Shown piece after piece: positions 1,280 through 1,763 of a stretch of DNA of 6,030 bases. A program made the translations under genes and the position numbers. Each line of letters opens with the position of its first letter. Position 1 is the stretch's first letter. A model generated the notes under the pieces. It made no database searches. It saw only the letters and a list, made by a program, of their open reading frames with translations, and was not told where the DNA came from. This DNA is from a virus (lineage: Duplodnaviria; Heunggongvirae; Uroviricota; Caudoviricetes), in the IMG/VR virus record IMGVR_UViG_2711768069_000002; one strand, given 5' to 3'.

Positions 1280-1391
1280 ATTCACTATCGCCACTTTTAT
1301 TGGCGATGAAAAGATGTTTCGTGAAGCCGTCGACGCTTATAAAAAATGGATATTAATACTGAAACTGAGATCAAGCAAAAGCATTCACTAA
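1248..1391 (+). CDS. kil: Kil, host cell-division inhibitor, 47 aa
   Basis: AGGAG (1234-1238) then ATG 1248. The product [47 protein letters not shown] matches lambda Kil from memory. It overlaps the end of cIII as in lambda. It is the C-terminal part of track ORF 1122..1391. Confidence 0.85.
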
Positions 1392-1466
1392 CCCCCTTTC
1401 CTGTTTTCCTAATCAGCCTGGCATTTCGCGGGCGATATTTTCACAGCCATTTTCAGGAGTTCAGCC

Positions 1467-1763
1467 ATGAACGCTTATTACATTCAGGATCGTCTTGAGG
1501 CTCAGAGCTGGGCGCGTCACTACCAGCAGATCGCCCATGAAGAGAAAGAGGCAGAACTGGCAGACGACATGGAAAAAGGCCTGCCCCAGCACCTGTTTGA
1601 ATCGCTATGCATCGATCATTTGCAACGCCACGGGGCCAGCAAAAAAGCCATTATCCGTGCGTTTGATGACGATGTTGAGTTTCAGGAGCGCATGGCAGAA
1701 CACATCCGGTACATGGTTGAAACCATTGCTCACCATCAGGTTGATATTGATTCAGAGGTATAA
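1467..1763 (+). CDS. gam: Gam, RecBCD inhibitor (short GamS form, 98 aa)
   Basis: The product [60 protein letters not shown]… is near-identical to the lambda Gam short form as I recall it. It lies immediately upstream of bet. Confidence 0.93.

Follow-up and report, generated by a model that had tools for sequence, protein, structure and literature searches.

The kil-gam junction of a 933W-type lambdoid prophage carries a common natural allele that encodes Gam in its 98-residue form

In bacteriophage lambda (NC_001416), the annotated gam gene is 417 nt long, and its continuous reading frame specifies a protein of 138 residues, GamL. A shorter form, GamS, corresponds to residues 41-138 of GamL; it is active by itself, and expression of either form yields active protein (PMC5218532). 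The two lambda isoforms presumably arise from two start sites (PMC11610958). In disc assays with Klebsiella pneumoniae, GamL is reported to have been slightly more effective, in general, than GamS (PMC5218532), so GamL may have a role where it is present. The solved structures 2UUZ and 5MBV are of the 98-99-residue form, and the 98 positions of the protein family model PF06064 correspond to lambda GamL residues 41-138.

The DNA analyzed here is a stretch of 6,030 nucleotides, the window, from IMG/VR virus record IMGVR_UViG_2711768069_000002. It spans the pL-operon recombination region, cIII-kil-gam-bet-exo, of a 933W/Stx-type lambdoid prophage. The gene order is that of lambda and 933W, with gam between kil and bet-exo, and the flanking cIII, kil, gamS, bet and exo are all intact. 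Over the 521 nt around gam, identity to the Stx-converting phages AU6Stx1, BP-4795, Stx2-86 and 933W is 98.7-99.4%; in a comparison of the whole window, the same group of phages matches roughly three quarters of it, at about 97%. The features of the region are as follows.

1102-1160, plus strand: Lambda_thermo RNA element in the 5' region of cIII (Rfam RF01804, 88.5 bits, E 2.8e-21)
1115-1279, plus strand: cIII, 54 aa, from the ORF list; 165 nt, equal in length to lambda cIII
1248-1391, plus strand: kil, 47 aa, MDQTLMAIQ...SKSIH (Pfam PF06301 Lambda_Kil, E 8.8e-20); stop TAA at 1389-1391
1346-1498, plus strand: 50-codon ORF, residues 1-34 homologous to the lambda GamL N-terminal extension; stop TGA at 1496-1498
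1392-1466, plus strand: kil-gam spacer of 75 nt, the 5' leader of gamS; in lambda, GamL codons 16-40
1410-1412, plus strand: TAA stop in the gam reading frame, closing that frame upstream of GamS
1448-1453, plus strand: allele-defining site CATTTT (lambda: TATTT), with a SNP at 1448 and an extra T in the run 1450-1453
1455-1459, plus strand: GamS Shine-Dalgarno sequence AGGAG, 7 nt upstream of ATG 1467
1467-1763, plus strand: gam, GamS form, 98 aa, predicted RecBCD inhibitor (Pfam PF06064; PDB 5MBV, 2UUZ); annotated as Gam in 933W and by RefSeq
1769-2539, plus strand: bet (Red operon), from the ORF list and annotations of matching phages
2551-3231, plus strand: exo (Red operon), from the ORF list and annotations of matching phages

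The Lambda_thermo family is the thermoregulator of cIII mRNA, and the match at 1102-1160 covers the Shine-Dalgarno site and start of cIII. The kil gene, 144 nt long, matches lambda kil in length and position, and RefSeq annotates the same 144-nt kil.

A first-pass annotation of this DNA had pointed to an ATG at 1346, within kil, that opens a 50-codon ORF ending at TGA 1496-1498, begins like lambda's long Gam and runs out of frame with gam at 1467, so that the 98-aa Gam would be the sole Gam encoded. The translation of the ORF agrees with this description: its first 34 residues match the N-terminus of lambda GamL, and the offset between the two starts (1467-1346 = 121 nt, or 1 modulo 3) places them in different frames. 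We found no uninterrupted frame leading from ATG 1346 into the GamS codons; the frames differ by +1 and the upstream ORF stops at 1496-1498. The gam frame itself is open from 1413 only, and between the TAA at 1410-1412 and position 1467 it contains no ATG, GTG or TTG. The continuous long Gam of lambda, which the annotation had cited, is indeed there as the 138-aa ORF of NC_001416, and alignment of the two kil-gam junctions showed the lambda frame relationship to differ from that of the window, as had been proposed.

Nucleotide alignment with lambda reveals three differences over 1346-1466: TTTT at 1450-1453 where lambda has TTT, C at 1448 where lambda has T, and T at 1419 where lambda has C. 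The remainder of 1346-1500 is identical. The ATG homologous to lambda position 33232 inside kil is present as ATG 1346, in an identical AAAAAATGGATATTAAT context. The frame difference is caused by the one extra T in the run 1450-1453, accompanied by the linked SNP at 1448: ATG 1346 is out of frame with gam because of this extra base, and with this insertion, in the T-run immediately before the GamS Shine-Dalgarno sequence, only the 98-aa Gam is encoded. The one-base indel anticipated near 1448-1456 was thus borne out by the lambda alignment, in a T-run lying one base to the left of the 1451-1454 first given for it. The description of the long frame as “broken” stands insofar as the frame is interrupted; it fails where it implies a lesion or a read error, the allele being the majority natural form.

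That the extra T might be a homopolymer error of sequencing or assembly, in which case the real phage would have lambda's continuous GamL, is suggested by its position in a short homopolymer and by rare Kil-Gam fusions in public data (P0002, P0005-P0008), which point to indels or miscalls in this area. The distribution of the two alleles, T4 as in the window and T3 as in lambda, speaks against such an error. The census used queries of 45 and 44 nt centred on the T-run, chosen so that every 28-nt megablast seed spans both the run and the linked SNP. Each allele occurs in 90 deposited phage records. In 5426 complete Escherichia coli genomes, T4 was found at 2900 places in 2590 genomes and T3 at 972 places in 900 genomes, or about 72% and 24%, respectively, of the 4011 lambda-type gamS places in these genomes. 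Carriers of T4 include 933W, BP-4795, Stx2-86 and Min27, and the junction sequences of 933W and Stx2-86 are identical to that of the window. Mixed forms are almost absent from the 5426 genomes (T at 1448 with TTTT at 2 places; C at 1448 with TTT at 0), which marks T3 and T4 as two old and stable haplotypes; on the same ground, repeated slippage in the T-run was rejected. Random errors of run length would not recur as an identical 45-nt sequence in so many genomes and phage records from many laboratories and platforms, nor would they leave the extra T tied to the C at 1448. The census and the linkage to the 1448 SNP exclude a sequencing error, the probability of which we regard as virtually nil.

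T4 is a fixed and widely shared natural allele, not a chance feature. Recombination among lambdoid phages would have spread both haplotypes. Outgroups give no polarity to the T3/T4 difference: the upstream sequence of distant homologues is unrelated and the length of the run unalignable, the long form being absent from all of them. In a separate search with the window gam, 153 of 3174 matching E. coli records were at least 99% identical (20,395 records in the collection).

The window thus has the common T4 form of the kil-gam junction; very probably its gam is expressed only as the 98-residue GamS, and its ORF at 1346 is meaningless. Translation of GamS would begin at ATG 1467 from its own Shine-Dalgarno sequence, AGGAG at 1455-1459. 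The anti-Shine-Dalgarno duplex calculated for this start has a free energy of -6.9 kcal/mol, comparable to those of kil (also -6.9), bet and exo; for ATG 1346, which has no Shine-Dalgarno site, the value is +0.4. The GamS product would be the conserved dimeric DNA mimic that inhibits RecBCD. ATG 1346, the GamL start in lambda, is here out of frame, has no ribosome-binding site and would give a product of at most 50 residues, probably without meaning. Any use of this ATG would be unproductive, and the loss of GamL appears to have carried no functional cost.

One could view the interrupted long frame as the mark of a defective prophage in decay, its long gam recently inactivated by mutation. Defective prophages are common in E. 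coli, and homopolymer frameshifts are typical of early lesions. The allele is, however, common to the plaque-forming or inducible phages 933W, BP-4795 and Min27, and T4 is the majority state in E. coli; the linkage to the SNP at 1448 further argues against an independent origin of T4 in this genome. Besides, cIII, kil, gamS, bet and exo are intact, and patterns of variation indicate selection on gamS. In a sample of 40 distinct haplotypes, biased towards close relatives of the window and analyzed with statistics that ignore phylogeny, 21 of the 294 gamS sites were segregating, distributed 4/2/15 over the three codon positions. With 15 of its 21 variable sites at position 3, gamS shows the signature expected of purifying selection. 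In the same haplotypes, 15 of the 75 sites of the spacer 1392-1466 were segregating (2/6/7 by codon position in the GamL frame), making the spacer, which has no third-position bias, about three times more variable than gamS (Fisher p = 0.0019); the difference in codon-position distribution alone was not significant (p = 0.18). At the protein level, 12 nucleotide variants of the N-terminal extension gave 9 protein variants and 17 of gamS gave 6. Taken with the distribution of the allele, the intact genes and the selection on gamS make pseudogenization of a long gam highly improbable.

The haplotypes with an intact GamL are of some interest in themselves, as 5 of their 8 variable spacer sites lie at third codon positions, a weak hint, from small numbers, that the long frame may be slightly constrained in the T3 lineage. 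One could envision T3 and T4 as a maintained polymorphism, with an accessory long isoform of Gam made under one allele and missing under the other. The 40-residue extension would then be endowed with a separate activity, directed at another host nuclease or defence system, or would alter potency, and phages making only GamS would be phenotypically unlike lambda-type phages. We consider such a switch very unlikely.

Besides the T4 allele, which leaves the 50-aa ORF, loci in IMG/VR and elsewhere have lost the GamL frame in several independent ways. A one-base deletion in a C-run just after the kil stop, on a T3 background, shortens the upstream ORF to 21 aa (6 loci). Elsewhere kil is replaced by a different gene of 96 aa, with the mosaic boundary at ATCACTAA, or the upstream region is fully unrelated. 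The kil-gam spacer is kept even where another gene replaces kil. Among lambda-type gam loci, many have this unrelated 96-aa ORF in place of kil (for example L052, at 335-625, as well as L035, L039 and L040); it ends at the same CACTAA, so that the mosaic junction coincides with the kil stop and the 75-nt leader travels with gam. The region around the kil-internal ATG was found at only 1612 places in the complete E. coli genomes. Comparison of these kil 3' ends with the 2900 T4 places implies that many T4 loci have no GamL-type ATG. By these counts most T4 loci may be of the kil-replaced type, devoid of an equivalent of ATG 1346 because kil is replaced. Subtraction suggests that the exact arrangement of the window exists at at least ~640 places, assuming that each kil 3' end adjoins a gam.

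Other variants affect kil itself. In some IMG/VR haplotypes with CACTACCCCCC, the kil stop TAA (equivalent to window 1389-1391) is changed to TAC, so that Kil would run on for about 7 more residues, as far as the TAA equivalent to 1410-1412. The Kil-Gam fusion proteins mentioned above (171-213 aa) are rare in public assemblies. Additional single-base changes, in the A-run preceding ATG 1346 or close to the kil stop, apparently gave rise to them, possibly as homopolymer errors and possibly as uncommon natural variants.

The diversity of these alleles bears on the idea that a programmed +1 ribosomal frameshift at CAU UUU C (1447-1454) yields a GamL-like isoform at a regulated ratio. UUU followed by C would let tRNA-Phe re-pair in the +1 frame, and with the gam frame open from 1413, a change of frame at any point in 1413-1495 would yield a fusion. 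In the classical +1 frameshift of prfB, a Shine-Dalgarno-like stimulator lies 3 nt upstream of the site. At the present locus UUU_C is compatible with slippage, but the stimulators known for +1 shifts are absent: the A-site codon, CAG, is neither a stop nor rare, and AGGAG is downstream of the site. ATG 1346 has no Shine-Dalgarno sequence from which the upstream frame could be entered. Folding of 1386-1480 gave no significant RNA structure in the kil-gam spacer (z = -0.88) and no Rfam match falls there, the cIII thermoregulator being the only Rfam element of the window; an RNA structure or element in the spacer was rejected on these two results. Nor is the arrangement conserved across alleles. 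Other natural alleles require the opposite shift, as with the C-run deletion, or are without the upstream ATG; therefore no consistent frameshift design has been preserved. We judge programmed frameshifting exceedingly improbable here.

Could the ORF at 1346-1498 be an independent small protein with a function of its own? It is an intact, ATG-initiated ORF, kept in all the kil-type T4 haplotypes sampled, and it has been annotated once publicly, the identical ORF of Stx2-converting phage 86 being named “gam alternate”. The preservation of the ORF is, however, explained by the near-identity of the sequences sampled. The 50-aa product has no Pfam or NCBIfam match, its start has no Shine-Dalgarno sequence, and the ORF overlaps two genes; its C-terminal 16 residues come from reading the gamS leader and start out of frame. 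The RefSeq annotation leaves the ORF out. Moreover, most T4 loci may have no such ATG, kil being replaced in them, and another allele cuts the ORF to 21 aa. A dedicated small protein is accordingly very unlikely; most likely the ORF is the out-of-frame counterpart of the GamL extension and is either untranslated or non-functional.

Conservation across the Gam family likewise centres on GamS. Residues 1-98 of the window Gam match model positions 1-98 of the 98 in PF06064 (211.3 bits, cut-off 25), and the same residues match 5MBV_A and 2UUZ_A with E 1.3e-59. A protein search with GamL gave 239 cluster representatives; among the best 120 of these, residues 1-40 are covered only by representatives at least 96% identical to lambda, and nearly all the more distant ones have a length of 97-100 aa and align to 41-138. 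The gam genes of Citrobacter, Klebsiella, Raoultella and another Enterobacteriaceae genome, at 69-75% identity, begin at the GamS Met; these loci have no in-frame upstream ATG and their upstream sequence is unrelated. A (C)AGGAG-type motif before the start is kept in distant Gam homologues. RefSeq PGAP annotates a 297-nt gam in both a T3 and a T4 genome. Comparative evidence of this kind indicates that GamS is the conserved product of the Gam family and GamL a feature, and a dispensable one, of a single minority allele. The in-frame GamL of lambda is more accurately regarded as a special case than the window as damaged. From about 96% identity to lambda GamS, we infer that the window Gam binds and inhibits RecBCD.

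Two sets of gam sequences recovered in the searches deserve separate mention. A relative of gam in E. coli ECMA0423 and Shigella flexneri SFBU1023 (L020 and L021, 1411-1794) is 82% identical and has a replaced N-terminus; it has no Met at the GamS start, and the one codon from which it might begin is a GTG lying 27 nt before the aligned region. The copy may belong to a cryptic prophage and have decayed there. Regions identical to lambda gam also turned up in assemblies labelled Shewanella, Pseudomonas, Neobacillus, Oceanobacillus, Kitasatospora, Leeuwenhoekiella and others (L006-L016), several of the contigs being about 48.4-48.5 kb long, and coverage being near 1x in many cases. These are almost certainly contamination with phage lambda control DNA or vector. 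Near-identical gam matches in non-enteric “species”, being mostly lambda contamination, were excluded as evolutionary evidence.

As judged from its sequence, the gam gene of the window should be normal and functional, and is best annotated as a 98-aa Gam, with neither a frameshift nor a pseudogene flag. The T4 allele is already known from hundreds of public records, with gam annotated at 98 aa, and the finding is in this sense an ordinary one; we found no paper discussing the frame difference of 933W-type phages or the T3/T4 dimorphism. GamL is confined to the minority allele: at most about 24% of the lambda-type gam loci of E. coli could encode it. Its dispensability in nature supports GamS as the form routinely used for recombineering and in cell-free systems. 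Matched natural T3 and T4 alleles are at hand for asking whether GamL has a role of its own.

Among known systems, the PF06064 Gam proteins of Citrobacter, Klebsiella, Raoultella and Salmonella prophages are 97-99 aa long, with the GamS Met as start and an AGGAG-type Shine-Dalgarno sequence; they differ from the window Gam in their identity of 69-82%, in the unrelated genes upstream, and in having neither a GamL-type ATG nor an overlap with kil. The “gam alternate” of Stx2-86 (YP_794101, 153 nt) corresponds exactly to 1346-1498: it is equally long, sits at the same place and overlaps kil and gam in the same way. It reflects an annotation choice only, since the ORF is left unannotated in other records and in RefSeq, and we know of no functional evidence for it. 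The gam genes of 933W (AAD25420), BP-4795, Min27 and the Stx1 and Stx2 phages have the identical T4 allele and the same frames, and are annotated at 98 aa. 933W-type gam differs from that of the window by a few SNPs only, two of which change Gam residues; the window Gam has H24 and I63 where the 933W and Stx2-86 proteins have R and T. The gam gene of lambda (NP_040618; GamL 138 aa, GamS 98 aa) resembles that of the window in its operon position, kil-gam-bet-exo, and its GamS is about 96% identical to the window Gam (94 of 98 residues). Both share the same Shine-Dalgarno site, GamS start codon and kil-internal upstream ATG. Lambda differs in its TTT and in the SNPs at 1448 and 1419; there the upstream ATG is in frame, and a 138-aa GamL ORF exists.
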